Source: Bacillota bacterium
GTDB lineage: Bacteria; Bacillota; Dethiobacteria; DTU022; UBA8154
Direction of reading: 5' to 3'
NCBI GenBank assembly: GCA_012798755.1
Contig: JAAZMP010000022.1
Span: 2,047-66,046 of the forward strand
Length of the DNA stretch: 64,000 nt
Shown one piece after another: positions 872 through 23,432 of this stretch. A model generated the notes under the pieces. It was given only the letters and a program-made list of their open reading frames with translations, was not told the DNA's origin and searched no databases. Each line of letters starts with the position of its first letter. The first letter of the stretch is position 1. The translations under genes and the position numbers were made by a program.

Positions 872-907
872 GTGAAAAACATTCACATTGCAATATAGGT
901 GAAAAAC
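872..907. promoter_or_regulatory. Putative operator: two direct repeats GTGAAAAAC spaced 27 bp in the promoter region of the XRE gene
   Basis: Exact 9-mer repeated at 872-880 and 899-907 directly upstream of the XRE start (minus strand). Confidence 0.3.
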
Positions 908-2310: not shown

Positions 2311-2443
2311 AAAAACACTCCTTCGGATTTAATTGGTTGAACATGGATATTTAAAATATTCTATTAAATAAAACATAATTCCTGCTTTATTTTTTATTTT
2401 ATTGGTGGTGAAATAAATTGAACGTAGGCGAAACTCTTTTAAT

Positions 2444-5017: not shown

Positions 5018-6250
5018 TTGTATTACGCCCGTTGCGAGTAGTGCCTTTATGGACTAAATAACGCCTATCGTCATCGTATAGAACTAACCTTTTCTCCACC
5101 GCTAATCCTAAAAGATAAGCAAAAGTCTCAGGTAAGTCAACTACCTTACTTTTTGTCTTCCCACCTGCTTCATCGTTATTACAATGAATGTATAACTCGT
5201 AAGAAAACGGATTGTCCATTTTTTTCACATTTAATAATGTCTCGCTTTTTCTAGTTTCCCATTTTAGCATGTATTGCAACAAATAATCATCAAACTGCAA
5301 AGTTTGTTGCTCAGCAGATTCATCAAAAGTTATGTTATTTAACGAATCCTCATAAGACTCTAGGCGAATAACCTTAACTATACGAGGACTATTTTTTGCT
5401 TCCTCGGGTGTAGCCATCCTACGCGGCTTGCCATTCCGCCATTCAGGTGAAAAAGTAACTTTCTTGATTCTTGGTAAAAGCACTGTATCAAAATACTCGG
5501 CCATCTCTACAAGTATAAACTTTCGGTTGCCACCATCTTCACGATTAAGATTGATAACAGCATGACCGGTAGTGCCTGAACCAGCGAAATAGTCAAAAAT
5601 CTTATCATCTGACCGTGGGCTAATTACACGAATAGAATCTTCTACTAATCCAACAGCCTTAGGATAATCAAAATCACCAAAACGACCAAACAAATTCTTA
5701 ACTTCACGCGTTCCCCAATCTGTTGCCGAATATTCCTTTTTTGCCCACCATGTTGGGGGCGTAACCCCTTCAGGCTGTCGAGCCTTTATATAAAGGCTTA
5801 ACTGTCCACTCCTGTCCTTATCCAGTTTTACCTCTGTTGGGGAATCGGTTAATCGCTCTATACTCCATTTCCATCGTCGGTGTTGACCTTGTTCATCAAT
5901 GGGAAATAGTATCGTTTCTTTCTCTCTCGGCTCTTCTTCCAATATCCACTTTTCGTTAACATCATCCCAAAACATTTCGGGAATGCGGTAACGAAGCATT
6001 GATTCATCTATAAAAATTGGATAATACATTCGCATAGACTCTTCTCTTGTTCCGCCGTGTTTTCTAAAATTGACCCATTCATATTTGCCAAATTCATCGC
6101 GTTCTTTATATCTTCTTTTTTGTTTCTCAGAATGGGCAAATTACCTTTAAAGATCAAACATTTGTTCTGTGACGTTAAGTTAATACCAAAATGGGCATTC
6201 AACAAAATTGAAATCAAAGTCCCCAGCATAGATATACTGCTGTTTGGCAC
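4959..6250 (-). pseudogene. mod: Type III R-M Mod methyltransferase remnant: N-fragment (6008-6250) and C-fragment (4959-6035) in different frames, internal region with motif IV (DPPY) deleted
   Basis: C-fragment carries motif I DYFAGSGTTGHAV and FILVEMAEYFDTV, matching the C-terminal third of beta-class Type III Mod; N-fragment has LIFKGNLPIL resembling the LLIKGDNLEVL block that precedes DPPY; no DPPY in any frame between. Confidence 0.55.
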
Positions 6251-6754
6251 TGTAGGCGGCTGGAGTATTCGCGTACCTCAGATACCCAAAATATCTGCAC
6301 TAGCCAGAGGCAGCCTGGTGATGGAATATATAGGTGGATATTTCTTTCTGGCTTTCAGTATTAGAAAGAACGGCACATCGGTTGCAGGGTCCACTACCAG
6401 TACAGAATATAAAGATAAAACACACAGAAACAATTAGTAGCGGGAAGATAGATATCGAGCCGAACGATTTGATATAGGTATATGGGTGTGCGGAAGATTA
6501 TGGCTACATCTTTGGTTTCAGAATTGGGTATGACGTTTCTTATTCTTATATAGTATGGAACAGATGAGGTTTTAATGGATTAAATGGGAGCACCATAATG
6601 AAATGCAATAATACAAGGAGGTTTTCACATGAACATTAAAAGTTTCACCCCGTTGCGGGGTTTGTTGTTTTCCCGGGCCGTTTTCCACAAAATCATGGTA
6701 ACGCCATGGTTGCATGTTATAATTATTATAATCAACAAGAAAGGGGAAGAAATT

Positions 6755-7525
6755 ATGAACGTTGAAATGATAAAATTTAATTTTGAGGGCCATGACCTGG
6801 TTGGAAGGGCTTATTTCGATAAAAAAATTACCCCTAAAAGGCCCTTGTTAATTCTTTGCCACGGGATTCCGCGAGGCGATGTTTCACCCCAAGAGAAAAA
6901 AACCGATGGCGGCTATGCGGCGCTGGCAGAGCATTGCCTGGCCGAAGGGTTTCCTTGTTTTCATTTTAATTTCCGGGGGACGGGGGAAAGCGGGGGGAAC
7001 TTTGATCTTTCCGGTTGGACAAGGGATCTTACAGCTGTTTTGAATTATTGGGAAAAACGCGGCCTATACAATAGCTTTTATCTGTGGGGTTTTAGCGCGG
7101 GGGGCGCTGTTTCCAGCCATGTGGCTTCAAATGATGAACGTGTAAAAGCTACGGTGCTGGCGGCCAGCCCGGCAGAATTTAAAAGCATTTTTATCCAGGA
7201 GGATCTGGACAGTATTATCTCCCGGCTCCGCGATACCGGCATTCTTAGGGATCCGGGGTTTCCGGAAGATCCCCGCTCTTGGCTTGAAGACATTCACGCG
7301 GTAGATCCACTGGCTTGCATAGGGCGTATATCTCCCCGGCCGCTTTTTATCGTGCACGGGACAGGTGATGATGTAGTTCCTCTTGAGCATGCCCATAAGC
7401 TTTTTGCGCAGGCCGGTGAACCCAAAAAGCTCAAGGTTTTAGAGGGTGCCCAGCACCAGCTGCGCAAGGACGAAGAAGCTGTTTCGGTGTGTTTGGAGTG
7501 GCTCAAAGGCTTGCCGCTTTCCTGA
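6755..7525 (+). CDS. Alpha/beta-fold hydrolase (dienelactone-hydrolase/BAAT-like)
   Basis: LILCHGIP...WGFSAGGAVSSH nucleophile elbow GxSxG, C-terminal HGTGDDVVP...H; start chosen at internal ATG with AAGGGGAAG RBS. Confidence 0.6.
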   Translation: MNVEMIKFNFEGHDLVGRAYFDKKITPKRPLLILCHGIPRGDVSPQEKKTDGGYAALAEHCLAEGFPCFHFNFRGTGESGGNFDLSGWTRDLTAVLNYWEKRGLYNSFYLWGFSAGGAVSSHVASNDERVKATVLAASPAEFKSIFIQEDLDSIISRLRDTGILRDPGFPEDPRSWLEDIHAVDPLACIGRISPRPLFIVHGTGDDVVPLEHAHKLFAQAGEPKKLKVLEGAQHQLRKDEEAVSVCLEWLKGLPLS

Positions 7526-7892
7526 TAGAGCTCCATGTTGTTTCCTTTGGGCAGCATCAGCGAAAGGGGAAAAATGGTTTCCCGCTTGTGCTTCCGGTAT
7601 AGTTTTAACGGTACCATTTGTTTGCTATGGAAAATCCATCTTTCCCCTGGAGCAGGGCATCATTTCACGACAATTGTAGGGGATGATCGATCCGTGTTGA
7701 CATAATTCTTTGTAAGATGATACTATAAATTCATAATAAGGTTTTCAATAAGCATAACCTACTGCTATTTGCCGGAAACAGAGTCAAACGTTGTTAAAAT
7801 TTTTAAGGATAGCATTGGTTTAGAGACGGTGCGTTACCTGTAAATTCAACGTTTTGTTGATTGTTGCAGGCATAGAGGAGGGGGTTTTGAAA

Positions 7893-9170
7893 ATGAACAC
7901 CTACGACTTAGAAAAAACCAGAGATTATAATATGCAATTGCCACATTTTGGTTCCGGCGCTAAAAACGAACCTCAATTGGTAGATTTTATTAACACAAAA
8001 ATTCTTAACGACATACGTGACAAATTCACCCAGGTTACAGGAATACATTGTGTTATAGCGGACACGGACGGCCGGCCGCTGACCAAAATAGATATATTTT
8101 CCCGGTTTTGCAAACTGGTGCGTTCTATCCCGGAGGGTAGAAAAAGGTGTGAAGAATGTGACCGGGTTAACTCTATGATTGCGGCAAAGAAGGGGGAAGC
8201 TATATTTTATAAATGCCACGCCGGGTTAATTGACGCTGCTATGCCTATTGTGCTTAAAAATCAGCACGTAGGCAATTTTTTATGTGGCCAGGTTGCTTTA
8301 CAGGGCGATGAATTGGATCATGATGATATTAAAAAGCGGATAAGTGATCTGAATATAGATGAAAGGCTCTTGTGCCCCTACCTGGCCGAAATTGAGGTTG
8401 TAAGCCAGGAAAAGTTGATAGCCGCACTGGAAATGATGGTATTAATGACAAAGTACATTGTAGAAATGGGTACAGCCAATATAACCCAAAAGCAATTAAT
8501 GACAGAGATGAAAGCCAAAATGGAACTGGAAAATATGCTCAAGGAGGCCGAATATAAAGCACTTTTGGCCCAAGTTAACCCCCATTTTCTATTTAATTGT
8601 CTAAACACTATTGGCCGGGTTGCTTTGACTGAGGGGGCGACAAAAACTCAAGAACTTATATATTCTACCGCAGATATGTTAAGAAGTTTACTTAAACATT
8701 CCGACAGGATTATTCCTGTGACAGAAGAATTAAAATATGTAAAAGACTACCTGGTTATTCAACAAACCCGTTTTGGTGACCGCATTTCAATAGTATATGA
8801 AATCAGCGATGAGGTCAGGAATGCAAAATTACCCAAATTCACCATCCAACCTTTGGTGGAAAATGCCATCGTTCATGGGTTGGAACCGCAGAAAGATGGA
8901 GGAACCTTGCTTGTCAAAGCTGACAGGCAAGGTAACAGTACTATTATAGAAGTAATTGATACAGGTGTGGGGATACCGGAAGCCGAAATGGAGGCACTGC
9001 GTAAATTTGATCAAGAATATAACTCTGCTGGGGAGTACAACGGCCTGGGTTTGTTCAATGTACACCATAGAATACAGCATTACTTTGGCAAAGAATATGG
9101 GTTGGAGCTGAAATCCAGGCCCGGCCGGGGCTGCAAGGTTACCGTTAAGTTGCCCTTCATTAAAGAATGA
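7893..9170 (+). CDS. Sensor histidine kinase with N-terminal PocR sensory domain and LytS/YehU-type His_kinase + HATPase_c
   Basis: PocR-like Cys/His-rich N-domain (CEECDRV...YKCHAGL); NPHFLFNCLNTI (His_kinase family motif); G-boxes DTGVGIP, GLGL; strong RBS AGAGGAGGGGG. Confidence 0.7.
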   Translation: MNTYDLEKTRDYNMQLPHFGSGAKNEPQLVDFINTKILNDIRDKFTQVTGIHCVIADTDGRPLTKIDIFSRFCKLVRSIPEGRKRCEECDRVNSMIAAKKGEAIFYKCHAGLIDAAMPIVLKNQHVGNFLCGQVALQGDELDHDDIKKRISDLNIDERLLCPYLAEIEVVSQEKLIAALEMMVLMTKYIVEMGTANITQKQLMTEMKAKMELENMLKEAEYKALLAQVNPHFLFNCLNTIGRVALTEGATKTQELIYSTADMLRSLLKHSDRIIPVTEELKYVKDYLVIQQTRFGDRISIVYEISDEVRNAKLPKFTIQPLVENAIVHGLEPQKDGGTLLVKADRQGNSTIIEVIDTGVGIPEAEMEALRKFDQEYNSAGEYNGLGLFNVHHRIQHYFGKEYGLELKSRPGRGCKVTVKLPFIKE

Positions 9171-9183
9171 CGGAGGTGTTTTC

Positions 9184-10803
9184 TTGATGTACAGTGTAAT
9201 GATCGTAGATGATGAATACCTGGAGAGAAAAGCCATCAGGGCAATGGTGGAAAAAAATATGCCCAGACTTGAGGTTGTAGGCGAAGGCCAAAATGGCGAT
9301 GAAGCAGTGGAGCTGGCGGTTGATCTGCAACCTCATATTATTTTAATGGATATAAAAATGCCCGGCCGATCGGGTTTGGAGGCTGCCCGGGAGATTACTG
9401 AACACTATCCTGATACCCGGATTATCATACTTACCGCTTTTGATTATTTTGAGTATGCTCACCAGGCTCTTCATATAGGCATAGTTGATTATCTTCTGAA
9501 ACCGGTCCGGCCAAGTGCGCTGCAAAAGGTATTGGATGCTTGTGTTAGCGATCTGGATGCCAAAACTAAAATGCTTGACGAGAATAAAAAGATCAGAAAA
9601 CAACTATCCAAGATGTGGCCCTATATTCAATCATCTTTTATCTTTGATCTTATCAATGGCAATATTGTTGAGGAGCAGGAACTTAAGCAGAGTGCAAGTA
9701 TTTTAGACCTTGATCTGTTTCCTTCGGTAGTAATGGTTATCGGGGTGGAAAAGCCGGAAACTGCAACAAGGTCGCTGCCCGGACTTCAACACCAGCTGAA
9801 CAGGCAAAAAGTGTTTGAGGTTGCCCAAGATGTTTTTAACGACTGTGCATCTGTGCTGATTACACCTGTCTTGGAAGACAAGATAGTGTTGCTGTTACCC
9901 TGCAACAATAAAGATAATATCGAAGCCCAATATAATTTTTATCATAGAAAGGCTGAAAAGATTCTCCGGCGGTTATCCGGTTCAGATATTTCGGTCAGCA
10001 TCGGTGTAGGCCGATTTTATGAAGATATATTCATGATCAGGCGATCCTATCTTGAAGCCTTGGAAAACCAACAAGCTTCTTCATTTGCCGGGGAAAATGA
10101 GATAGTATCTTGTTTAAACTGTGATTCAGCGGCCCAGTGCCAGCAATTTTGCAAGTATCAGGATCTTAATGAATCTGAATTGGTATATTTAATATGTGCA
10201 GGGGATTGGGAAGGGGTTACTAAGTTACTGGATCCCCTTTGGGATGCTATTTGTAAAAGCAATGCAGGTGAAGAACTACAAAAGGCATTGGTTTTGGAAC
10301 TGTTGGTTGTAATTTACCGGGCAGTAATGAGCGGCCCCGATAAGATGGCGATATTTGGCCTCAGCTATATTAAGGAACTGTTGGACAGTGACACTATTGA
10401 TCAGCTGGGGGAGGGTTTCTATGCAGCGGTCAAAGAAATGATGGAAACTGTGAAAAAAAATGATAAGGTTACATCGTCTATGGTAAAAGCGGTACAAAAC
10501 TATATTAACGACAACTACCCCCACGAGGTTTCATTAAAGGATGCCGCCCGGCATGTTCATGTGAGCCCCTGTTATTTAAGCCGTATTTTCAGCAAGCAAG
10601 TGGGCCTGCCTTTTAAGAAATATTTAATTGATGTGCGCCTCAATTCTGCCAAGAAACTGCTGCTTACAACCAATAAACCTGTCGGAGAAATTGCCTTTGA
10701 CGTTGGTTACAATGATGTCAGCTATTTCTGCCGTACTTTTAAACAGCACCAGGGGCTTTCGCCGAATAATTACAGGGCCAATAACGCCTACAATAACGCC
10801 TAG
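9184..10803 (+). CDS. Response regulator with CheY-like receiver and C-terminal AraC-type HTH (YesN-like)
   Basis: Receiver motifs IVDDE...ILMDIKMPGRSG...LLKP; C-terminal AraC signature (YLSRIFSK...GYNDVSYFCRTFKQHQGLSPNNYR). Confidence 0.75.
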   Translation: MMYSVMIVDDEYLERKAIRAMVEKNMPRLEVVGEGQNGDEAVELAVDLQPHIILMDIKMPGRSGLEAAREITEHYPDTRIIILTAFDYFEYAHQALHIGIVDYLLKPVRPSALQKVLDACVSDLDAKTKMLDENKKIRKQLSKMWPYIQSSFIFDLINGNIVEEQELKQSASILDLDLFPSVVMVIGVEKPETATRSLPGLQHQLNRQKVFEVAQDVFNDCASVLITPVLEDKIVLLLPCNNKDNIEAQYNFYHRKAEKILRRLSGSDISVSIGVGRFYEDIFMIRRSYLEALENQQASSFAGENEIVSCLNCDSAAQCQQFCKYQDLNESELVYLICAGDWEGVTKLLDPLWDAICKSNAGEELQKALVLELLVVIYRAVMSGPDKMAIFGLSYIKELLDSDTIDQLGEGFYAAVKEMMETVKKNDKVTSSMVKAVQNYINDNYPHEVSLKDAARHVHVSPCYLSRIFSKQVGLPFKKYLIDVRLNSAKKLLLTTNKPVGEIAFDVGYNDVSYFCRTFKQHQGLSPNNYRANNAYNNA

Positions 10804-10842
10804 GTAATAACAAGTTAGCCGGATTACAGCCGGTAGCGCTAA

Positions 10843-10872
10843 AAACTGCTCTATAATAGGGCAGTTTTTTTA
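10843..10872 (+). terminator. Putative intrinsic terminator after the response-regulator gene
   Basis: AACTGC...GCAGTT stem followed by T7. Confidence 0.4.
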
Positions 10873-11316
10873 TTTATTGACTTTACTGCAAGGCTATTAC
10901 ACCGAAGGATCATGATGTTAAAGCTGTCGCGGCTTTTGTCCTAAGCGATAGGGCTGTCACTTTGAATGCCACCGGCTGCTGTCCTGGGTTTCAGCGAAGG
11001 ATCTTAAAAACCCCGCTATGTCTTTGCCCCATCGTTTAATCCGTAAAAATTATGTCCTTAAAATAGCAGTTTTTTTACATTTAACTTTTCAAGGTTTTTC
11101 TTTTTTTTATTTTGAACAGAAATCAAACAAAAAATTCCCAGGGTCGAACAAGAGTGTTTCCTGACTTTAACGCCTATTGTTTTTACAATTGAATTGAAGG
11201 AGTGGAGCAGTTGTAAACAAGCAGGTTTTGCAGAACGCGGGTAAGGGAGGGATGGCTACAGGCTGGAACCAGGGTTTACTGGAAGTTTCCACAAAAATTT
11301 CCAAGGAGGTAGAAAA

Positions 11317-13839
11317 ATGGCTATAACTAACACGATGTTGGAATACGGGGTGGAACCTTTTGATCAGGATTGGGGAACGGGTAAATCAGGCATGGGTGAC
11401 GGAAATTTTTCGCCTTATCCTAGGATCAACAAATTAAGAAAAATTTTTTTAGACACCCCGCATACGATTGATGAAAAGCGAGCTGTTATTTGGACCGAAA
11501 CTTTGAAAAACAATGTGGAAAAGCCGTACATCGTAAGGTGTGCAGAGGCATTCAGGGAAGTTTTGCGCAGGGTCCCGCTCTACATTAACGAAAACCTCAT
11601 TCTTGGGGACATGGCGGCACCGCCCAGGTCGGCACCTGTTTTCCCGGAATTTTCTTATGATTGGTTTGTTGAAGAATTTGACAGCGCTCCTTTTAATGAA
11701 AGAGACGGTGACCGTTTCGAGTACACCAAGGAAACAGAGGAAATCTTAAAGTCTTTGCATCCCTACTGGAAAGGCAGAACCGTCCACGATCTGGCCAAAA
11801 GCCTGATGACGGATGAAGAGCTTAAAGGGGAAGCAACATACGGCAAGGCTTTGTTTTTTCCGGGGAACTATTTCTTCGGCGGTGTTGGCCACTGTTCGCC
11901 GCGTTTTGAGTTGCTTTTTGAAAAAGGCTGGAAGGGCATACGTGAAAAAATTGAAAAGGCGCAGGCGGCATTGGATCTGAGTACACCCGAAGGCGTGCAG
12001 AAAAACAATTTCTACCGTGCAGAGTTGATTGCTGTTGAGGCAATCTCTATTTATATCCAAAGATATGTCGATGAAGCCCGAAAATTGGCTTCGGAAACAA
12101 AAGATGAGCAAAGAAAAAAGGAACTGCTTAATTGTGCCAAGGTTTGTGAGCGTATTGTAGAAGATCCCCCCACTGATTTCTGGGAGGCTCTGCAGATGGC
12201 CTGGTTTATCACCGTTGCTATCCTCATTGAAAGTAACGGGCACTCCATTGCTTATGGGCGTTTTGATCAGTACATGTATCCTTATTATAAGAAGGCTATT
12301 GCAGAAGGTTCATACACTAAGGACTTTATGCAGGAACTGATCGAATGTTTCTGGATCAAAGTCTGCGAACTTACCAAGATCAGAGACGCGGGTTCAACCC
12401 AGGCCTTTGGCGGTGTGGAAATAGGCGGTCCTTCTCTGACATTGGGCGGTGTGACCCCCGGCGGTGAAGATGCTGTCAATGAACTAAGCTTTATGGGCAT
12501 TGATGCTTTGGCACACCTTAGGCTGCAGGCCCCCTGGGTGACAACCAGGCACCATCCCAACCAACCTTATGAATGGTGGGTAAAATGCACCAAGGTTGCT
12601 AAAATGGGCTTTGGCTTACCTTCATTTTTCAATGATGAAGTCATTATCCCCTCCATGGTCAACAGGGGCAGGGCTATCGAGGATGCACGCGATTATAATG
12701 CCTTGGGCTGTGTAGAACCCGATGCCGGAGGGCGCGAATACGGCTGGCACGACATGTGTTTTTTCAATATGAACAAAGTCTTTGAACTGGCTCTGAACAA
12801 TGGAAGATGTTTGAACTGCAATGACACGTGCCCACGTTATGAATTTTGTGCCGGTGCAGGGAAACAGCTTGGTATCCCGACAGGTTCACTGGCCGATTTT
12901 AAAACCTTTGAAGAGGTCAAAGAAGCCTATGATAAGCAGATGAAACACTGGGTGGACTGCCTTGTCGGATTTTGCAACAGCTGCGATATAGCCCACCAGA
13001 CCAGAAAACCACTGCCCTATCTTTCACTTTTGATCGAAGACTGCATAGAAAAAGGCATCGATGTTACCGCCGGCGGAGCCAGATACAATTTTATTGGCCC
13101 GCAGGGTTTGGCGGCAGCTAACGTTGGTGATGGTTTGGCAGCTATTAAAAAACTTATATTTGAGGAAAAAAAGATTACAGGGGCAGAAATGCTTGATGCC
13201 TTGAAAAAAGACTGGGAGGGCTATGAAGCAATGCATGCCCTTGTTAACAGCAGCAAAGTTCCCCATTACGGCAATGACGATCTTTATGCCGATGAATTGG
13301 CCAGATTTGCTGCTCTTTCTTACTGCAAGCATCTGGAAAAACGCCCTACAGCTCATGGCGGTATTTTCCAACCCGGGCTTTACCCTGTATCCGGAAACAT
13401 CCCCGCCGGTGCCAACAACTGGGCGACCCCGGACGGGAGAAAGGCTGGAGAACCAACAGCGGATGGCGTATCTCCTGTCCATACCTCCAGGGGATCCCAT
13501 GACATTTCCGGCCCCACTGCGGTGGTCAAATCAGTATCTACCCTGGACCATTGCATTGCTTCAAACGGAACCCTTCTCAATATGAAGTTTACACCTTCAA
13601 CGCTGGCCGGGGAAGTGGGCGATGAAAACTTCATCAATATGATGCAGGTCTACTTCCAGCGCAAGGGTATGCACAATCAGATCAACGTTATCAGCAGGGA
13701 AGTCCTTGAGGATGCCGTTAAAAACCCTGAACAGTATAAGGGCCTGATCGTCAGGGTTGCCGGTTACAGTGCATTCTTTACTGAACTTGATCCCAGCCTG
13801 CAGCAGGATCTTATCGAAAGAACGGAGCTGGAATTTTAG
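11317..13839 (+). CDS. Glycyl radical enzyme, dehydratase/eliminase class (single catalytic Cys followed by Glu: GCVEP); 840 aa
   Basis: C-terminal glycyl radical motif RVAGYSAFF; GCVEPDAGG Cys-X-Glu loop (as in CutC/glycerol and diol dehydratases/HypD/IslA rather than PFL CC pair); RBS AAGGAGG. Confidence 0.85.
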   Translation: MAITNTMLEYGVEPFDQDWGTGKSGMGDGNFSPYPRINKLRKIFLDTPHTIDEKRAVIWTETLKNNVEKPYIVRCAEAFREVLRRVPLYINENLILGDMAAPPRSAPVFPEFSYDWFVEEFDSAPFNERDGDRFEYTKETEEILKSLHPYWKGRTVHDLAKSLMTDEELKGEATYGKALFFPGNYFFGGVGHCSPRFELLFEKGWKGIREKIEKAQAALDLSTPEGVQKNNFYRAELIAVEAISIYIQRYVDEARKLASETKDEQRKKELLNCAKVCERIVEDPPTDFWEALQMAWFITVAILIESNGHSIAYGRFDQYMYPYYKKAIAEGSYTKDFMQELIECFWIKVCELTKIRDAGSTQAFGGVEIGGPSLTLGGVTPGGEDAVNELSFMGIDALAHLRLQAPWVTTRHHPNQPYEWWVKCTKVAKMGFGLPSFFNDEVIIPSMVNRGRAIEDARDYNALGCVEPDAGGREYGWHDMCFFNMNKVFELALNNGRCLNCNDTCPRYEFCAGAGKQLGIPTGSLADFKTFEEVKEAYDKQMKHWVDCLVGFCNSCDIAHQTRKPLPYLSLLIEDCIEKGIDVTAGGARYNFIGPQGLAAANVGDGLAAIKKLIFEEKKITGAEMLDALKKDWEGYEAMHALVNSSKVPHYGNDDLYADELARFAALSYCKHLEKRPTAHGGIFQPGLYPVSGNIPAGANNWATPDGRKAGEPTADGVSPVHTSRGSHDISGPTAVVKSVSTLDHCIASNGTLLNMKFTPSTLAGEVGDENFINMMQVYFQRKGMHNQINVISREVLEDAVKNPEQYKGLIVRVAGYSAFFTELDPSLQQDLIERTELEF

Positions 13840-13875
13840 TTCTGGCCGGAAAAGCTGCCTGAAAGGAAGGTTGCC

Positions 13876-14283
13876 ATGAAAATGACATTGGAACTGGCCT
13901 TAAAAATGATCAAAAAGGCCGAGGAAAAAGCCCAATCCATCAATGTGCCACAAATCATTGCCGTAGTTGATGCCGGAGGCAATCTTGTAGCGCAACATCG
14001 TATGGATGGTGCCATACTGGCCAGTATAGATATTTCCTTTAAAAAAGCATATACCGCTGTAGCCACCAAAACACCAAGTCATTTGTTGGGTGCAGCTGCC
14101 CAGGTGGGCGGCCCGCTTTTTGGGTTGAATACAACCAACAACGGCAAAATAGTAATTTTTGGCGGTGGCTACCCGGTTAGTGATGAAAACGGACAGGTTA
14201 TAGGAGCTATTGGAGTTAGCGGCGGATCGGTTGAGGAGGATATGGCCTGCGCAGAAGCAGGGTTGGCGGCAATTAAGTCCTAA
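13876..14283 (+). CDS. DUF336 / GlcG-HbpS-like (PduO C-terminal-domain-like) protein
   Basis: AVVDAGGNLVA...SIDISFKKAYTA...GGGYPV...IGAIGVSGG pattern typical of DUF336 heme-binding family. Confidence 0.6.
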   Translation: MKMTLELALKMIKKAEEKAQSINVPQIIAVVDAGGNLVAQHRMDGAILASIDISFKKAYTAVATKTPSHLLGAAAQVGGPLFGLNTTNNGKIVIFGGGYPVSDENGQVIGAIGVSGGSVEEDMACAEAGLAAIKS

Positions 14284-14379
14284 AATGTCAAAGCCGTTTA
14301 CAGCTGCGTGGTTTGAAGGTAACCCTATTACGCGGGGGGTTATCTTCAAACCCCGGGCTGCGGGAAGGAGGAAAGTATA

Positions 14380-15327
14380 ATGGAACATTTATTGATACCC
14401 ATGGGAGATATAGGTATATGCCATCTGTTGCTTGGCTTTGCAGGGGGGGTACTTGGCGCCTGTTTTGCGGCACTGCCTGCTTTTGCCATATGCGGTATTT
14501 TTGTTTTAATGGGGGTGGCCCTTACTTTTACGGGTGCGGGAAGTTTATTTCTGGACAATATTGCTTTTGGTTGTATCGTTGGGCCGCAAACCGCTTTTGC
14601 CGGGGGGGTTGCGGCAGCGGCATATGCAGCTTCCAGAAAATATTTGGATACCGGCCGGGATGTCTGTACAGCTTTAAGCGGTCTTAACAAGCCTGATGTC
14701 CTTTTGGTGGGCGGGCTGTTTGGTTCACTGGGTGTTGCACTGGTATGGGTGTTTCAAACCTTGCTGCCTTTTGGCTGGAATGGTTTCCATTGGACAGACT
14801 CCCCGGGCCTGACCGTATTTATTTCTGCAATCATTGCCCGTTTGATGTTCGGTAAAACAGGTTTGTTGGGGAAGGTTCCGCAGGGAGAAAACCGTTGGCA
14901 GCCATCGATTGAAAATTCCTGGCTTCCCCAAATGTTTTCCGGTTTTCAGATCTTGGTAATTGGTTTAAGTTTTGGTTTTTTATCAAGTTGCCTTGCACTT
15001 ATAGTGGGTTTTGACAATGGTGGCATAGTTGTCGGGTTTGGCTTGTCTGCCGTAACCTTGTTTTTAATGCAGGCCGGGTTTAACATACCGGTTACACATC
15101 ATATTACCCTGATTGCGGCAGGGGCTTGTGCAGCCAGCGGCGGGAGTTTGCTCTGGGGTGCCATCTTCGGGGCGCTTGCTGCTTTTGTCGGCGAATATGA
15201 AGGGCGGTTGTTTCTGATTTTTGGCGATACCCATATAGATCCGCCGGCCATGGCTATATGGAGTATGTGGATTGTGTTGGTATTGTCCGGTTCCGCGGGC
15301 ATTTTTTCCGCTATTCCTTTGCCTTAG
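14380..15327 (+). CDS. Gly-rich polytopic membrane protein (possible substrate/product permease), family not recognised
   Basis: ~8 predicted hydrophobic helices, RBS AAGGAGGAAAG; sits between the GRE and its activating enzyme. Confidence 0.4.
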   Translation: MEHLLIPMGDIGICHLLLGFAGGVLGACFAALPAFAICGIFVLMGVALTFTGAGSLFLDNIAFGCIVGPQTAFAGGVAAAAYAASRKYLDTGRDVCTALSGLNKPDVLLVGGLFGSLGVALVWVFQTLLPFGWNGFHWTDSPGLTVFISAIIARLMFGKTGLLGKVPQGENRWQPSIENSWLPQMFSGFQILVIGLSFGFLSSCLALIVGFDNGGIVVGFGLSAVTLFLMQAGFNIPVTHHITLIAAGACAASGGSLLWGAIFGALAAFVGEYEGRLFLIFGDTHIDPPAMAIWSMWIVLVLSGSAGIFSAIPLP

Positions 15328-15415
15328 CAGCAAACAGTGATGTTAACCCTGGTATAGGGGTGAAGAAGTTTGTTTGACAGGTTTCACTGCAGACTTGAAC
15401 AATTGGAGGTTTAAG

Positions 15416-16390
15416 ATGAAAAAGGCTAAGGAAATAAAAGGTATTGTCTTCAATGTACAAAGGTATACTGTCCACGACGGACCTGGGACCAGGACGGAAT
15501 TATTTTTGAAAGGTTGTCCCTTGCGGTGTCTCTGGTGCGCCAATCCGGAAGGTTTCCACCGATATGTGGAAATAGGTTTATATGTGGACAGGTGCATAGG
15601 AGTTGACAAGTGCGGCTATTGCCTGGATCTCTGCCCGGATGGCAATAGCCGGGGTATTCTTACCATTGAAAATAACGTGATCACATCGATCGATCGCGAA
15701 TTGTGCAGCAATTGTCTAAAGTGTGCCCAGGCCTGCCCCGGGAACGCCCTGGTGGTATGGGGTGAAACAATGACCGTATCAGAAGCCGTCCGGGAAGTGC
15801 TCAAAGACAGAGAATTTTATGGCAGCAAAGGTGGCGTTACCATTTCCGGAGGCGAACCGTTAGCGCAGTGGGAATTTACTTTGGAGGTTATGAAAGCTTG
15901 CAAGAAAGCGGGGATCCACACCTGTATCGAGAGCACCTTTTATGGTCCCTGGAACGTCATAGAACAGATTCTTGAATACGCAGATTATATTTATACAGAT
16001 ATAAAGCACATGGATTCCGATAAACATAAGGAATATATTGGGGCGGGAAATGAATTGATCCTGGAAAATTTAACCCGCATCAGTAAAATGGGAATCCCCT
16101 ATGTTATCAGAATGCCGGTGATCCCCTACCATAACGATTCGCCGGAAAATGCCAGGGCCACAGCCGCGTTTATCGTTGATGCCATGGGGAATACCGTCAG
16201 GCAGGTTCAGCTGCTGGCCTTCCATGAATATGGGAGGGTAAAATATGATACTTTGGGCCTAAAATACCCCCTGGAGGGGCGCAAATGGCCGGATAGGGTC
16301 GAACAGAAGGCCAGGATCACGGAAATACTTGATATCATGAAATCCTATGGTGTCCCGGCTGTAATCGGAAGTAACGAAAGCGTGGACTAA
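15416..16390 (+). CDS. Glycyl-radical-enzyme activating enzyme (radical SAM, with extra ferredoxin-like Cys clusters)
   Basis: CPLRCLWCANPE radical-SAM CxxxCxxC; additional CxxCxxC...C clusters; GGEPL motif. Confidence 0.8.
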   Translation: MKKAKEIKGIVFNVQRYTVHDGPGTRTELFLKGCPLRCLWCANPEGFHRYVEIGLYVDRCIGVDKCGYCLDLCPDGNSRGILTIENNVITSIDRELCSNCLKCAQACPGNALVVWGETMTVSEAVREVLKDREFYGSKGGVTISGGEPLAQWEFTLEVMKACKKAGIHTCIESTFYGPWNVIEQILEYADYIYTDIKHMDSDKHKEYIGAGNELILENLTRISKMGIPYVIRMPVIPYHNDSPENARATAAFIVDAMGNTVRQVQLLAFHEYGRVKYDTLGLKYPLEGRKWPDRVEQKARITEILDIMKSYGVPAVIGSNESVD

Positions 16391-16450
16391 ACATGCAATA
16401 TCATATTATAAATGCAATCTATGGACAAATAAGGGGAAAGGAGAATAGAT

Positions 16451-18262
16451 ATGTTTGGCTTGATGGGTACAATTTTAAGAATTAATCTCACAGAACGTAC
16501 GGTAAAAAAAGAACCCCTTGACCCCAAGTTGGCAGAACAATATTTAGGGGGAAGGGGGCTGGCCAGTAAAATTCTTTACGATGAAATTGATCCGGCAATT
16601 GATGCACTGGGTCCCGAAAACAAGATTATTTTTTCCATTGGGCCCCTTACCGCTGTCCGTGGGCCGCTTACGGCGAGAAGCATGGTTGTCACCAAAAGTC
16701 CGTTAACCGGTACAATTGCCTGCTCAAACGTAGGCGGATCCTGGGGGGCGCAGATGCGGCAGGCGGGGCATGATATTATTATAGTTGAAGGTAGGGCTGA
16801 AAAGCCGACGTATTTGTGGGTTCACGGCGATGACGTGGAGATACGACCTGCCGATGGGGTTTGGGGTGAAGGTGTTTCCCGGACAACTTCTGTGTTGCGG
16901 GATGAAACAGATGAAAAAGCTGAAGTAATGTGCATAGGGCCGGCCGGAGAAAATCTTTCTTTGATTGCTGCCATTATGAACGAGCACCGGGCTGCCGGGC
17001 GTTCCGGTGTGGGAGCCGTAATGGGGAGTAAAAACCTTAAAGCCCTGGTTATAAGAGGAGTGGGCCGCAAGGCAAAAATAGCTGATCCGGAGGCTTTCAG
17101 CGAAGTTATTAAAAGGTGCCGCAAAAAAATAAAAGACAGCCCGGCTACCGGGATGGGACTGCCGAATCTGGGGACTGCCATGTGTGTGACACCGGTTAAC
17201 GGGGCGGGGGCCTATCCCATCAAAAATGGCCGTCAATCTTTCATGGAGGACGACAGCCTGGTTAACGGAGATGCGCTGGCCGCAAAATACCTGGTTAAAA
17301 AGCAGGGTTGTTCCCACTGTATGATACAGTGCGGCAGGGGTACCGTAGTTACAGAAGGCCCCTATGTATGCGAAGGTGAAGGGCCGGAATATGAAACTTT
17401 GTGGGCCTTGGGCGCTTGTTGCGGAATTCTCGATCGTATTGATGCAACGATAAAAGCCAACCAAATATGTGACGAGCTGGGATTGGACACTATAAGCATG
17501 GGCCTAACAATTTCCTGTGCCATGGATCTTTTTGAAGACGGCCTGATACCACTGGAGGATATTGGTGCCCCCTTGCATTTTGGGGATGCAGCAATGGTGG
17601 TTAAATTAGTCGAAGATACCGGTTATGCAGAAGGCTTTGGCGCTAAATTGGCTTTAGGATCATATCGCTTGGCTGAGCACTATGGCCATCCTGAATATTC
17701 TTTGTCCTGTAAAAAACAGGAAGTAGCTGCCTATGATCCCCGTGGGGCGCAGGCGGTAGGTCTGGGTTATGCAACTTCCAATCGCGGCGCCTGCCATTGC
17801 CGGGCAAACGTCCACCAACAAGAATTGTTGGGTGCAGACCCGGTTGATCCGCATATTATCGAAGGCAAAGCCGAATTGGTAAAATCGAAACAAGATTTTT
17901 GGAGTACAGTTGATGCGGCAGGCGTTTGTGCCTTTTTGTTCTTTGGGATCGCACCCGAAGATCTTTTTGATGCACTCAAAACTGTCACCGGGATGGATTT
18001 TGATGGGAAAAAAGCACAAGAAATTGGCGAACGTATCTGGAATTTGGAAAAATTGTTTAACCTGAAAGCCGGCCTGACAGCAGCAGATGATACCCTGCCT
18101 CCGCGCTATCTTCATGAACCGCCTAAAACAGGTCCCACTGCGGGAATGGTGAACAAACTGGGAGAAATGCTGCCGGAATATTATTCACTTCGGGGTTGGG
18201 ATGATGCAGGCGTACCTACAGCAGAAAAATTGGCGGAGCTAGGTTTGCAGCAGGCGCGATGA
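16451..18262 (+). CDS. Aldehyde:ferredoxin oxidoreductase (tungsten-containing AOR family)
   Basis: N-terminal AFOR_N pattern (ILRINLT...GGRGLASKILYDEI), central Cys motifs CSHC...C, 603 aa typical of AOR. Confidence 0.8.
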   Translation: MFGLMGTILRINLTERTVKKEPLDPKLAEQYLGGRGLASKILYDEIDPAIDALGPENKIIFSIGPLTAVRGPLTARSMVVTKSPLTGTIACSNVGGSWGAQMRQAGHDIIIVEGRAEKPTYLWVHGDDVEIRPADGVWGEGVSRTTSVLRDETDEKAEVMCIGPAGENLSLIAAIMNEHRAAGRSGVGAVMGSKNLKALVIRGVGRKAKIADPEAFSEVIKRCRKKIKDSPATGMGLPNLGTAMCVTPVNGAGAYPIKNGRQSFMEDDSLVNGDALAAKYLVKKQGCSHCMIQCGRGTVVTEGPYVCEGEGPEYETLWALGACCGILDRIDATIKANQICDELGLDTISMGLTISCAMDLFEDGLIPLEDIGAPLHFGDAAMVVKLVEDTGYAEGFGAKLALGSYRLAEHYGHPEYSLSCKKQEVAAYDPRGAQAVGLGYATSNRGACHCRANVHQQELLGADPVDPHIIEGKAELVKSKQDFWSTVDAAGVCAFLFFGIAPEDLFDALKTVTGMDFDGKKAQEIGERIWNLEKLFNLKAGLTAADDTLPPRYLHEPPKTGPTAGMVNKLGEMLPEYYSLRGWDDAGVPTAEKLAELGLQQAR

Positions 18263-18325
18263 AACAAAAGCAATATTTGATTTTTAAAAATTAAAGTTTA
18301 GCTGCCGGTAAGATCTTGGTAATGA

Positions 18326-18362
18326 AAAGCCAATGCTTTCATATTGGGCATTGGCTTTTTCT
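18326..18362 (+). terminator. Intrinsic terminator after AOR gene
   Basis: AAAAGCCAATGC-loop-GCATTGGCTTTTT. Confidence 0.55.
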
Positions 18363-18429
18363 CTTTCTTGACAGCGAAATGCGTTTGTGTTAAAATTATA
18401 TTCGTTGTATAAAGGTTTTATTGTCGCGC

Positions 18430-18507
18430 GGTGGGTGTAGCTCAGCTGGTTAGAGCGCCAGGTTGTGGCCCTGGAGGCCGTGGGTTCGAGTCCCATCACT
18501 CACCCCA
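18430..18507 (+). tRNA. tRNA-His (GTG) with encoded G-1 and CCA
   Basis: Manual fold: G-1 + acceptor GTGGGTG/CACTCAC, D-arm GCTC..GAGC, anticodon loop TTGTGGC (GUG), T-arm GTGGG TTCGAGT CCCAT. Confidence 0.85.
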
Positions 18508-18553
18508 ATCTAAAATTAAATATTTAACTGTATTTAAGCAAAAAAAAAATTGC

Positions 18554-18629
18554 TGGGGTGTAGCCAAGCGGTAAGGCACAGGACTTTGGATCCTGCATTC
18601 CGTAGGTTCGAATCCTACCGCCCCAGCCA
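18554..18629 (+). tRNA. tRNA-Gln (TTG)
   Basis: U1:A72 acceptor TGGGGTG/CGCCCCA, anticodon stem CAGGA/TCCTG with loop CTTTGGA (UUG), T-loop TTCGAAT, CCA encoded. Confidence 0.85.
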
Positions 18630-18703: not shown

Positions 18704-20272
18704 TTACATCGCTTCTCCGGTGTCGATCATGCCACGGTTGTTTTTATGATCATAGCCGACAACGGACATGTCCTCGCTATAGGCAAATTCGATAAATCCT
18801 GGATCCATTTTTTCGGTAAAAAAACTGATGATTGGGGTTATGGCCAATGGAACAAGGCAGGCGTACATGCAGGCGCTGACGGTGTCGGTAATTTTGAACA
18901 GGGGCAGGCCGACCGCCAGGGCAAATCCGCATATGCTTCCCGCGATTGCGCCGGCTGTAGTAGTTTTTTTGGAAAGAATACCATAAATGTAGGCGCTCAT
19001 AAAAAAACCGGAGACAGCGCCCCAAGATAGGCCCATCAAAGCTATGATGGCTGCCGGCCGGATCAAAGCAATGGCCAAAGCTGCCAGGATAAACAAGGCA
19101 CTCAGTGCTTTCAGCAGGTGGGTGACCTTGCGTTCGTCCATATCTTTTTTGAGATAGCCCTTAATCAGATCAAGGCCAACTGCGGAGCTGGATACCAGGA
19201 CAAGCCCGGCTAGCGTGGACATGGAGGCGGAAAGAACCAGTAAAAGAACTACGGCCAGAAAAAATTCGGGAAGAATTTTTTCCAAAATTTGTGGAGCAAG
19301 CAGATCAATGTTGGGATTACCGGTAACAGAATCCAGTGGCAACGTATCATAGAACAGATGTGCAAAAAAACCGGGGATATGGACAGAAGTAAGAATGATT
19401 AAGCCAAGGATTGTGCAGACGACACCACCGATTCTTACCAGTTTTGCGTTTTCTATTGCAAAAAATTTCTGAACTAATTGGGGCAGGCCGTTGGGGGCTA
19501 AACTTGTTAGCAGCAACATTGGGATAAAGCCGCCCAGCAAGGCAAAGTTGCCGCCCAAATTCCAGGAGGTAAGCTCTGCACCGGTGATTGGCTCCCCTGA
19601 AGTGGTCGTGGATACAACATCTTTCAGGCGTGCTATTCCGTTTGCCAAACCACCAACTTCCGGTGCCGAAAGTGTAAAGTATACGATGACAATGCCTCCA
19701 ATAAGCATTATAGCTCCTTGTATAACATCAATGGAGGCAGCGGCCCTGTAGCCGCCGATCGTGAGGTAGAAGATTGCAAGTAACGCCATGGCAATAAAGG
19801 AAGTGGTATAGGGAATATGGAATACACTTTCAAACAAATAGCTCAGGCAGGTAAATACGCTTGCCGTGTAGGGCACAAGAAAAATGAAGATAATAAGGCC
19901 GCCCGCTATTTTGAAATAATCGGTATTAAAACGCGCCCTTAAGAAATCCGGCAGGGTTTGTACATCTAGTTTTTCGCTCATACTGCGGCTTCTGCTGCCC
20001 AGCAGAAACCATGTCAGGATGATGCCCAAAAGGACGTTTCCCCAGGCATTATACAAGGCGCCAATACCATAATTCCAGCCGAACTTGCCGGCGTTAACAA
20101 TACATACACCCGACACATACGTAGCTGCAAATGAAAAGGATGTCAGTATGGGGCCGATCGAACGGCCGCCGAGGAGGAACCCTTCACTGCTTTCCACGGC
20201 GGATGATTTGCTTTTAATGCCTACGTACACTATAAAGATCACATACAGGGCCAGCAGCACATACTTTACCAT
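18704..20272 (-). CDS. Sodium:solute symporter family (SSF) transporter
   Basis: 522 aa, ~13 TM segments, SSF-like N-terminal region; RBS AAAGGAGA. Confidence 0.65.
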   Translation of the reverse strand: MVKYVLLALYVIFIVYVGIKSKSSAVESSEGFLLGGRSIGPILTSFSFAATYVSGVCIVNAGKFGWNYGIGALYNAWGNVLLGIILTWFLLGSRSRSMSEKLDVQTLPDFLRARFNTDYFKIAGGLIIFIFLVPYTASVFTCLSYLFESVFHIPYTTSFIAMALLAIFYLTIGGYRAAASIDVIQGAIMLIGGIVIVYFTLSAPEVGGLANGIARLKDVVSTTTSGEPITGAELTSWNLGGNFALLGGFIPMLLLTSLAPNGLPQLVQKFFAIENAKLVRIGGVVCTILGLIILTSVHIPGFFAHLFYDTLPLDSVTGNPNIDLLAPQILEKILPEFFLAVVLLLVLSASMSTLAGLVLVSSSAVGLDLIKGYLKKDMDERKVTHLLKALSALFILAALAIALIRPAAIIALMGLSWGAVSGFFMSAYIYGILSKKTTTAGAIAGSICGFALAVGLPLFKITDTVSACMYACLVPLAITPIISFFTEKMDPGFIEFAYSEDMSVVGYDHKNNRGMIDTGEAM

Positions 20273-20325: not shown

Positions 20326-20970
20326 TTATTCCTTAAAACTTAAAGCCCCCACGGGGCAAACCTCCACACAAAACCCGCATTCAATACAAGGGGAATCGGC
20401 CAGGCTGGTATCTCCAAAAGTTGTCACCCTACGATCTATTCCACGGCGGGAAAAGCCTATGGCTCCTACTCCGGCTACTTCGTGGTCTTCCCAAACGCAA
20501 CGGCCACAAAGGACACATCTTGTGGGATCGAAGGCAAAAGTATCGGGACTGTCGTCTATAGGCAGATCCTTTACTAAAGGTCTGAAGCGGGTTAGCCTGA
20601 GCTTCAAACGCCGTTCCTTGGCAATTTTTTGCAGTTCACAGGAGCGGTTTTTCGGACATTCCGAACATTTAAGGCGATGATCGGATAGCAATAGCTCAAA
20701 GGCGGTTTTAACCAGGCGATCTACTGCCGGGGATCTGGTTTTGACAACCATACCTTCGGTAACAGCCAAGTTGCATGCCGTAACCGGTTCCCGGTAGCCT
20801 TCAACTTCAACAAAACAAAGGCGACAACTGGCCTGGGGAGGATCTATTTCCTTGACTGCGCAAAGATTGGGGATATAAATATCATTATCCAAAGCCACCC
20901 AGAGCAGTTTTTCACCTTCAGGTGCAGTAATTTCACGGCCGTCTATGGTCAAAGTTATCTTTTTGCTCAT
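20326..20970 (-). CDS. 2Fe-2S + 2x[4Fe-4S] iron-sulfur protein resembling the N-terminal domain of NuoG/HydA (no H-cluster or molybdopterin domain)
   Basis: Fer2 Cys pattern (C..C..C...C) at N-term, NADH-G 4Fe-4S region, two CxxCxxCxxxCP motifs; 4-bp overlap with upstream NuoF-like gene. Confidence 0.65.
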   Translation of the reverse strand: MSKKITLTIDGREITAPEGEKLLWVALDNDIYIPNLCAVKEIDPPQASCRLCFVEVEGYREPVTACNLAVTEGMVVKTRSPAVDRLVKTAFELLLSDHRLKCSECPKNRSCELQKIAKERRLKLRLTRFRPLVKDLPIDDSPDTFAFDPTRCVLCGRCVWEDHEVAGVGAIGFSRRGIDRRVTTFGDTSLADSPCIECGFCVEVCPVGALSFKE

Positions 20971-22880: not shown

Positions 22881-22883
22881 AGT

Positions 22884-23432
22884 CTAGTCTCCTTTCTCCT
22901 CGTTTTCCTCTGCTTCTTTTTGTTCTTCTTCTTGTTCATCTGCTTCAAAAGCCAGCATCAAGCCATCAACCCGGGTGGGCGTTACCTTTCCTTCAATATC
23001 TTCGTTTACCACAACTACAGGGGCGATAGCACAACAACCGACACAGGCAACCGTTTCCAGGCTATATTTACGGTCGCTTGTAGTTTCTCCTTCTCCGATT
23101 TTTAAGTGCCTTTCAAAGGATTCAAGTGCTATGCGGCCCCCGACCATGTAGCAGGCGGTGCCCATACATATCTTTATCTGATGTTTACCCGGGGGATTCA
23201 AACGAAACTGGTTGTAAAAAGTGGTAAGGCCAAAAACATCAACAGAAGGTATGTCCATCGCTTCGGCGATTATTTCCATGGACAAGCCCGGTAAATAACC
23301 AAGGCTATCTTGAACCTCCTGAAGGATAGGTATTAGATTTTCGCGATCACTCCCATGTTTTCCCAGTATTTCGCCTACTTTTTCAATTATAAGTTCTTTT
23401 TCACCTTCCAGAAGTTGTTGCACTAAAAACAT
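22884..23432 (-). CDS. NuoE-like 2Fe-2S thioredoxin-fold subunit (HydC/HndA/StnA-like)
   Basis: CMGTACYMVGG ... CVGCCAIAPVVVVN NuoE signature; acidic C-terminal tail. Confidence 0.75.
   Translation of the reverse strand: MFLVQQLLEGEKELIIEKVGEILGKHGSDRENLIPILQEVQDSLGYLPGLSMEIIAEAMDIPSVDVFGLTTFYNQFRLNPPGKHQIKICMGTACYMVGGRIALESFERHLKIGEGETTSDRKYSLETVACVGCCAIAPVVVVNEDIEGKVTPTRVDGLMLAFEADEQEEEQKEAEENEEKGD

Follow-up and report, generated by a model that had tools for sequence, protein, structure and literature searches.

A two-component-regulated glycyl radical enzyme operon that probably pairs a dehydratase-type eliminase with an aldehyde:ferredoxin oxidoreductase

Overview of the locus

A 64-kb stretch of a Bacillota metagenome-assembled genome (MAG; assembly GCA_012798755.1, contig JAAZMP010000022.1, positions 2,047 to 66,046; hereafter the window) contains a locus in which a two-component system is followed by a glycyl radical enzyme (GRE), its radical SAM activase and a stand-alone aldehyde:ferredoxin oxidoreductase (AOR). 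With fair confidence we read it as two transcription units that together serve the breakdown of a small hydroxylated compound, a neutral 1,2-diol being the most probable one; the aldehyde formed by the GRE would be passed to the AOR and converted to the acid. A two-component-regulated GRE feeding an AOR was the central proposal of the initial annotation, and the recurrence of the gene order in two related loci (L093 and L094), with co-divergence of the operon genes, argues for it.

Gene calls based on six-frame open reading frames (ORFs), Pfam and NCBIfam place seven genes on the forward strand, in the order and at the positions originally reported. The first encodes a kinase (7893-9170; the ORF opens with TTG at 7854 and the likely start is the ATG at 7893) with PocR (1.4e-47), His_kinase (1.6e-24) and HATPase_c (8.9e-15) domains, which lacks a hydrophobic segment and is therefore cytoplasmic. 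The second encodes a response regulator (9184-10803) with a receiver domain (Response_reg, 1.5e-25), GGDEF_2 (3.2e-13) and an AraC-type helix-turn-helix domain (HTH_18, 1.3e-23). Beyond a 513-bp gap (10804-11316) lie the genes for the 840-residue GRE (11317-13839; NMB40617.1; PFL-like 1.2e-199, Gly_radical 4.8e-29), a small HbpS-like/DUF336 protein (13876-14283; Pfam 4.1e-43), a glycine-rich DUF7973 (PF25928) membrane protein (14380-15327; 315 residues, 14.6% Gly), the radical SAM activase (from 15374 or 15416, with the ATG at 15416 the probable start, to 16390) and the AOR (16451-18262; NMB40621.1; 603 residues; AFOR_N 3.2e-79, AFOR_C 5.8e-131). The intergenic gaps from GRE to AOR are 36, 96, 46 and 60 bp. 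No homologue of a bacterial microcompartment (BMC) shell protein, an iron-type alcohol dehydrogenase (Fe-ADH) or a MIP channel was found in the 64-kb window by tblastn with queries from related loci, no Aldedh or ADH domain occurs among its ORFs of at least 150 residues, and genes for PduP, PduL and PduQ were not found at the locus. These searches uphold the earlier statement that shell, PduP-type aldehyde dehydrogenase and alcohol dehydrogenase are absent.

The AOR and its linkage to the GRE

The AOR matches WorL of Acetomicrobium mobile (9mqx_D, 657 bits) and the P. furiosus AOR (1aor, 592 bits) from end to end. Its cofactor residues are intact (C287, C290 and C294 of a C-x2-C-x3-C motif, C493 and E313), and a Cys-His dipeptide at 448-449 lies near the position of P. 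furiosus His448. No small-subunit gene adjoins the AOR gene, so that the enzyme looks like the single-subunit type (PMC12318220), and at the level of the family a tungsten cofactor and ferredoxin as the acceptor would be expected. The homologue search returned no 100% match because the cluster containing NMB40621.1 is represented by a 150-residue fragment, an artefact that could hide other full-length proteins.

The nearest relatives of the AOR are four proteins of 71-75% identity, after which identity drops to 56%. Loci were retrievable for three of the four, and in all three the AOR gene sits beside those for a GRE and an activase. L094 repeats the window order of kinase, regulator, GRE, DUF336, a DUF7973 remnant, activase and AOR (74, 63, 84, 84%, partial, 74 and 75% identity, respectively), and L093, from a 2.59-Mb genome, contains GRE, DUF336, DUF7973, activase and AOR (82, 81, 71, 71 and 73%), preceded by the gene for a sigma-54 activator that has GAF and PAS domains. 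The activase-AOR gap measures 60 bp in the window, 37 bp in L093 and 88 bp in L094, and GRE, DUF336, activase and AOR all give one and the same rank order of pairwise identities among the three loci, indicating that the operon was passed down as a single unit.

The third locus (L095/L096) comprises a PocR-domain gene, the AOR (71%), MetK, an 872-residue GRE, an activase and a BMC shell gene. This GRE is 44% identical to that of the window and scores 919 bits to the NCBIfam model for HpfG, a (2S)-dihydroxypropanesulfonate (DHPS) dehydratase. The proposal of an AOR in place of a microcompartment accordingly holds for the window locus, which has no shell gene, but not in general, as the L095/L096 combination implies that AOR and microcompartment are not strict alternatives. 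The position of MetK, a SAM synthetase, beside a radical SAM activase (L095, 1-8871) is unusual.

As background we used 176 GRE loci among the matches listed, mostly from a gut propanediol-dehydratase-like group (~40-44% identical); GRE scans of genomes and metagenomes added few clade members and were used solely to gauge how often AOR and BMC genes co-occur with a GRE. An AOR lies within 10 kb of the GRE in seven of the 176 loci, none of which belongs to the gut group, and in three of the seven (L008, L025 and L098) the AORs are unrelated (~30% identical) and accompany other GREs of the wider HpfG-like superclade. In this sampling GRE-AOR adjacency is rare overall, recurs in the superclade and appears to have arisen more than once.

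Two of these loci have further features of their own. L008 (Pelotomaculum schinkii, 2195-17429) carries a sigma-54 activator, an Fe-ADH, an AOR (32%), an MFS transporter, two tandem HpfG-like GREs, DUF336 and an activase; the GREs are named benzylsuccinate synthase and HPA (4-hydroxyphenylacetate) decarboxylase by NCBI, and both names are almost certainly wrong. L025 (a Bacillota MAG, 700-12500) combines ABC ATPases with a URO-D-like methyltransferase, a corrinoid-binding protein, an Fe-ADH and a tandem pair of AORs, after which comes an apparently frameshifted GRE (56%); this set of genes suggests demethylation feeding a GRE/AOR route.

Close relatives of the GRE also occur without an AOR. 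In the 12 gene neighbourhoods that were examined individually the genes that recur across the clade are those for the PocR kinase, the AraC-type regulator, the GRE and the activase, in many cases accompanied by DUF336. No AOR was found past the activase in the recovered DNA of L089 (GRE 83% identical), L090/L091 (82%), L003 (77%) and L092 (72%), which in three of these four loci (L089, L090, L003 and L092) ends 0.7-3.3 kb past the activase, nor in the recovered DNA of the deeper clade loci examined. The GRE thus works without the AOR, and the coupling is optional and lineage-specific. AOR-bearing and AOR-lacking loci are interleaved in one tight Bacillota subclade of the GRE tree, implying that the AOR was lost or relocated in some lineages.

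The absence of the AOR from most loci of the GRE clade in recovered DNA, together with the broad substrate ranges of AORs (PMC12318220) and a weak promoter-like match (9/12) that overlaps the AOR start (16446-16473), would also suit a recent insertion of a general aldehyde-detoxifying AOR that is merely downstream of the GRE and not its partner. We consider this decidedly unlikely: the adjacency is kept in three genomes whose AORs have diverged to the 73-77% level, in the same order of divergence as the other operon genes; the L095/L096 AOR, a fourth member of the subclade, is likewise GRE-linked, beside a different GRE; the activase-AOR interval holds no predicted terminator-like site; and the unrelated AORs of L008, L025 and L098 adjoin other superclade GREs. 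From the synteny we infer that the AOR would be a dedicated partner of the GRE, oxidising its aldehyde.

Transcription units and regulatory DNA

The kinase-regulator unit ends at an intrinsic terminator on the forward strand (10841-10869; 13-pair stem and T-run) that corresponds to inverted repeat I2 (93% complementary). A promoter for the GRE operon (CTGACT-17-TACAAT) is predicted on the same strand at 11161-11189 from a consensus scan and from an alignment of the window, L094, L090 and L003, in which it forms the sole conserved -35/-10 block of the gap; conserved A/T-rich blocks upstream of it may be regulator sites. Measured from the predicted promoter, the 5' untranslated region (5'UTR) of the GRE operon is ~120 nt long, and the 513-bp gap, initially described as a leader of ~510 bp, consists mostly of terminator, regulatory DNA and promoter. 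A riboswitch or leader RNA was rejected, there being no Rfam match in the gap at E <=1 and, the terminator hairpin excepted, only short and chance-like repeats.

The 60-bp activase-AOR gap contains a Shine-Dalgarno sequence and no predicted terminator-like site, with only weak intragenic matches before the end of the AOR gene. A strong intrinsic terminator (18324-18360, forward strand; 15-pair stem and T-run) closes the operon. Taken together, the terminator, promoter and gap signals suggest that kinase and regulator form their own transcription unit and that GRE, DUF336, permease, activase and AOR are co-transcribed. Just past the operon terminator (18368-18629) lie a near-consensus promoter with extended TG (TTGACA-17-TAAAAT, 11/12 match) and, downstream of it, genes for tRNA-His (18431-18507) and tRNA-Gln (18554-18629).

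Class and active site of the GRE

The closest solved structures to the GRE are the C. butyricum glycerol dehydratase (GD; 1r8w, 700 bits) and the propanediol dehydratases (PD) of Roseburia inulinivorans (5i2a, 683 bits) and Raoultella planticola (9rco, 674 bits; the GRM3 1,2-propanediol dehydratase, PMC12756279), all 43-44% identical. The two motifs noted initially are in place (GCVEP, residues 464-468; RVAGYS, residues 813-818). In the alignment with GD, His164 corresponds to H192, His281/Ser282 to H309/S310, Cys433/Glu435 to C465/E467, Asp447 to D479, Tyr640 to Y689 and the glycyl Gly to G816, so that every residue checked from what we take to be the catalytic set of GD is kept. The Cys-X-Glu loop and the roles of Cys, Glu and His in GRE eliminases have been described (PMC13450708). 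With an RVxG[FWY] motif, the Cys-X-Glu loop, the acid/base residues of dehydratases and a nearby radical SAM activase, the GRE is probably a dehydratase-type 1,2-eliminase yielding an aldehyde.

As anticipated, the GRE lies outside the pyruvate formate-lyase (PFL) and 4-hydroxyphenylacetate decarboxylase (HPAD) groups (TIGR01255, 121 bits; HPAD, 296 bits) and groups with the dehydratases. Membership in PFL, HPAD, CutC, HypD and IslA/HpsG was rejected on scores far under the respective cutoffs, and nothing around H192 or Y689 corresponds to the sulfonate triad (Arg/Gln/Arg) of C-S lyases. The accompanying generalisation that every eliminase of this GRE class has an aldehyde as its product needs correction, HypD yielding pyrroline-5-carboxylate (PMC13450708).

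The substrate side of the active site is different. An active-site loop specific to the clade, GGVEIGGPS (residues 365-373; 12409-12435, forward strand), aligns with GGYPM-YQN in GD and AGYSL-FQN in PD and has a one-residue insertion relative to both. Tyr339 and Ser642 of GD reportedly contact the C3-OH of the substrate (structures 1R9D and 5I2G), and we take the GD Tyr339/PD Phe344 and GD Ser642/PD Val696 positions to be C3 contacts. In the window GRE, a Gly of the inserted loop stands opposite GD Tyr339 in the alignment, PD Phe344 is likewise replaced, and the GD Ser642/PD Val696 position is occupied by Val691. The motif FGGVE[ILMV]GG.SLT, plus GLYPVS, is found in all 29 full-length database relatives of at least 65% identity. 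Of the 34 clade sequences examined, 33 keep Glu368; the lone exception is a gut enzyme with a MIP and Fe-ADH diol context. The clade occurs in Bacillota, Syntrophotalea acetylenivorans, a Desulfovibrionaceae MAG and Natranaerofaba. By alignment the GRE belongs to an uncharacterised clade of dehydratase-type eliminases defined by a GGVE[ILMV]GG loop, which suggests a substrate preference unlike those of C. butyricum GD and the Roseburia and Raoultella PDs. The initial account of the GRE was right about the dehydratase class; it missed that HpfG is the best curated match, albeit below cutoff, and that the loop is unlike that of every characterised dehydratase.

The gene contexts of GRE relatives point to a small neutral diol as the substrate, in line with the hint of a diol in the initial annotation. 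In the gut loci L004/L005 (GRE 69%) an Fe-ADH gene adjoins the regulators and a MIP channel gene occupies the slot of the window's permease; L007 from Natranaerofaba (GRE 65%) contains Fe-ADH, B12-dependent PduCDE and DUF336 genes; and the Clostridium loci L036 and L051 (GRE 44%) have the order kinase-regulator-GRE-activase seen in the window. No shell gene was found in the clade loci examined, in contrast to 60 of the 176 GRE loci listed.

The loop could instead reflect a substrate that is not a simple diol, such as ethanolamine, 3-amino-1,2-propanediol, a 2-alkoxyethanol or PEG-type ether, or a C4 polyol, with Glu368 binding the extra group. The loop would line the C3/leaving-group side, where its one-residue insertion and nearly invariant Glu set it apart from all characterised dehydratases; the sole Glu-lacking clade enzyme is the gut one in the classic MIP and Fe-ADH context; and the hosts include Syntrophotalea and Desulfovibrionaceae. 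We nevertheless find such a substrate doubtful, and somewhat more so than the chance insertion of the AOR: the PocR sensors, the His/Asp/Ser triad and the MIP, Fe-ADH and PduCDE neighbours are those of neutral diols, the pocket-facing position of Glu368 is presumed from the alignment, and the operon contains no ammonia- or alcohol-handling gene.

A separate four-Cys insertion, C-x2-C-x3-C-x5-C (C498, C501, C505 and C511; 12808-12849), is not present in the solved GD and PD structures and may be a structural metal site. It is common to most of the HpfG-like superclade and is therefore not specific to the clade; relatives with a GD-type loop have a Cys-rich insertion at the same position.

Relationship to HpfG

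The best NCBIfam model for the GRE is HpfG (NF048009), to which it scores 924 bits against a cutoff of 1000; five other clade members (P0008, P0023, P0030, L093 and L094) score 912-979 bits, and more distant HpfG-like relatives above the cutoff score 1025-1261 bits. The best cutoff-passing sequences carry an xGRGxGGES loop whose Arg is replaced by Val-Glu in the window clade; the sulfonate-binding residues of HpfG are deduced here from these sequences, and the cationic role of the loop is our own reading. A neighbour-joining tree joins the GRE clade to the HpfG-like superclade as its sister group and leaves GD and PD outside both. Given the score below cutoff, the loop without Arg and the tree, the GRE was not filed as HpfG, GD or PD, and membership in HpfG in particular was ruled out by the cutoff and the missing loop Arg.

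That the GRE is nonetheless an HpfG-type (2S)-dihydroxypropanesulfonate dehydratase, with the AOR replacing HpfX/HpfYZ and oxidising 3-sulfopropionaldehyde to 3-sulfopropionate, an oxidative branch that is known (PMC11489063), is the most doubtful of the alternatives: HpfG and HpfH are the best curated models for GRE and activase and the clade is sister to the HpfG-like enzymes, but all these scores, including those of the five clade members, lie under the curated cutoffs, the loop reads GVE in place of the Arg of cutoff-passing sequences, the window holds no HpfD-type Fe-ADH and the operon genes include no TauE-type exporter or other exporter or sulfonate-uptake family, and the slot between DUF336 and activase is taken by a permease in the window and by a neutral-solute MIP channel in L004. 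The NCBI HpfG model thus gives near-cutoff scores to enzymes whose substrates are probably not sulfonates.

Accessory proteins

The activase scores 317.8 bits to TIGR02494 (cutoff 174), and its best model is HpfH (NF048008), at 386 bits against a cutoff of 500. It contains the CX3CX2C motif CPLRCLWC and a ferredoxin-like CSNCLKCAQAC motif.

The DUF336 protein has its best matches in the Protein Data Bank (PDB) in EfgA (6bws, 4.5e-30), 2a2l (4.8e-30) and the DUF336 domain of PduO (5cx7). The second of these is presumably OrfY from the Klebsiella dha regulon. EfgA senses formaldehyde, and DUF336 genes accompany aldehyde-forming pathways in a role that is not known (PMC8153426). As a hypothesis, and by analogy, the protein might bind or sense an aldehyde or another small molecule.

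The membrane protein is identical to a database entry (P0241) with a precomputed DUF7973/PF25928 assignment and the NCBI name 'permease', and about 1,000 homologues were found. Its AlphaFold (AF2) model is confident (pLDDT 93.6, pTM 0.91), and a Foldseek search of the PDB gave a best hit of only E = 0.04 and TM = 0.2, so the model may represent an undescribed membrane fold. The protein probably moves the substrate or the acid product. Gene decay is seen in otherwise intact operons (L003, 5813-6204; L094, 7802-8303; L089, 6604-6922): of the DUF7973 permease gene, L003 retains N- and C-terminal remnants and L094 a truncated copy, and the DUF336 gene of L089 is frameshifted.

Proposed pathway and substrate

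In the scheme that we favour, whose chemistry and electron acceptor are read from homology, the substrate would enter the cell, possibly via DUF7973, and be sensed there by the cytoplasmic PocR kinase, which would phosphorylate the AraC-type regulator. The phosphorylated regulator would switch on the promoter at 11161-11189, giving a single transcript from the GRE to the terminator beyond the AOR. The activase would place the radical on Gly816, the Cys465 thiyl would take a hydrogen from C1, Glu467 would deprotonate the C1-OH and His192 would protonate the leaving group on C2, the loss of which would yield the aldehyde. The stand-alone AOR would then oxidise the aldehyde directly to the carboxylate and reduce ferredoxin. 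Such a route would need neither CoA nor a shell and would form no alcohol co-product, a dedicated scavenger keeping the aldehyde low, and its low-potential electrons could go to H2 or to ion pumping.

As to the substrate, a short neutral 1,2-diol (1,2-propanediol, ethylene glycol or a longer diol) comes close to an even chance. Another compound (an amino-alcohol, glycol ether or polyol) is a possible but tentative choice, glycerol is less probable again, and DHPS is improbable.

Several points weigh against this scheme. The operon contains no ferredoxin gene, and direct oxidation by the AOR gives up substrate-level phosphorylation. The decay of DUF7973 in L094 and L003 marks the permease as dispensable. 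The loci without an AOR in the recovered DNA and the promoter-like match at the AOR start, both described above, bear on the coupling itself, and the substrate residues are mixed, with a PD-like Val691, the loss of GD Tyr339 and a conserved Glu368 in the loop.

A bolder possibility is that the GGVE[ILMV]GG clade has a new eliminase activity, on neither glycerol, 1,2-propanediol nor DHPS, and with its co-evolving AOR forms an undescribed shell-free, CoA-free route to the acid that generates reduced ferredoxin. We put this forward tentatively and think it unlikely. If true, the route might feed the neighbouring BfuABC-like module, the A subunit of which is truncated.

Novelty and significance

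In the literature that could be searched, looking for glycyl radical enzymes in combination with AOR or tungsten brought up no account of a GRE-AOR operon, and a 2026 review of GREs mentions neither AOR nor tungsten. The components are of known kinds; what is new is the dedicated, co-diverging GRE-AOR pairing, the distinct GRE clade and the DUF336 and DUF7973 proteins of unknown function. The described fixes for the toxic aldehydes of GREs are a microcompartment with a CoA-acylating dehydrogenase, or reduction to the alcohol. A third would be an AOR encoded in the same operon as the GRE and co-evolving with it, through which all the reducing power of the aldehyde/acid couple would be captured as ferredoxin, as suits syntrophic or H2-producing digester organisms. 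The clade itself, widespread, uncharacterised and with its own active-site loop, is a concrete target for enzyme discovery.

Neighbouring DNA

Convergent with the AOR operon, the reverse strand encodes the core of a BfuABC-type flavin-based electron-bifurcation system (20326-23432, with 18704-20272). It comprises a NuoE-like C subunit, a 637-residue NuoF-like B subunit (674 bits to 9bov_B, 577 bits to WorB) and a 214-residue A subunit that has the N-terminal Fe-S domain only, where it is WorA-like, and lacks a catalytic C-terminal domain; next comes a gene for a sodium:solute symporter. These genes are not conserved beside the L093 and L094 operons and were rejected as part of the system, and a link between BfuABC and the AOR is speculative.

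Farther along, a long Mrp-type cluster (44107-57996) encodes MnhB, C, D, E, F and G, an MbhE-like protein and four more Proton_antipo_M subunits. It is broken by a LuxR-type response regulator gene (51977-52603), and no hydrogenase catalytic subunit was seen in it. Upstream of the locus, on the reverse strand (2444-6035), an 857-residue ORF without a Pfam match overlaps a gene for a 358-residue N6/N4 DNA methylase, and the pair may be a restriction-modification or defence module. The window also codes for sporulation genes and formate-tetrahydrofolate ligase.

Comparison with known systems

The best solved match to the GRE belongs to the C. butyricum glycerol dehydratase system (DhaB1/DhaB2, DhaS/DhaA and DhaT; 1r8w, 700 bits, 43%). 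The kinase-regulator-GRE-activase order of the window is reportedly that of dhaS-dhaA-dhaB1-dhaB2 as described by Raynaud et al. (2003), and the catalytic His, Ser, Cys-X-Glu, Asp, Tyr and Gly that were checked are all kept. The GRE differs from this enzyme in the replacement of Tyr339 by the inserted loop, in Val for Ser642 and in the four-Cys insertion (498-511), and the locus differs in lacking a DhaT-type 1,3-propanediol dehydrogenase, in having the AOR after the activase and in the insertion of DUF336 and DUF7973. The GRM3/GRM5 propanediol dehydratases (5i2a and 9rco, 43-44%) share the catalytic residues and the Val with the window GRE, and GRM-type PD loci often have DUF336 nearby, as the window does. 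Here, however, Phe344 is missing, the locus has no shell, PduP, PduL or PduQ, and the aldehyde would go to the AOR. HpfG and HpfH share the loop insertion and the four-Cys insertion with the window GRE through the HpfG-like superclade, whereas the window proteins fall under both cutoffs, have Val-Glu for the loop Arg and lack sulfonate-pathway neighbours.

On the AOR side, the P. furiosus AOR and WorL match over the full length and share the cluster Cys, the Glu and the His; in contrast to both, the window AOR is the last gene of a GRE operon and falls in a small GRE-linked subclade. It does not appear to belong to a bifurcating WorABCSL complex, there being no WorS-like gene adjacent to it, and the BfuABC-like genes lie on the opposite strand and are absent beside L093 and L094. 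In D. alaskensis CutC is encapsulated, and the AOR acts indirectly, via ethanol, during growth on choline (PMC4275255, PMC4215793). The cytoplasmic tungsten AORs of Pelobacter and Desulfovibrio serve as aldehyde sinks that convert acetaldehyde from ethanol, diols or choline to the acid without CoA, yielding reduced ferredoxin (PMC4275255, PMC4215793). The physiological logic is that proposed for the window, with the difference that the AOR genes of Pelobacter and Desulfovibrio are not linked to that of the aldehyde producer.

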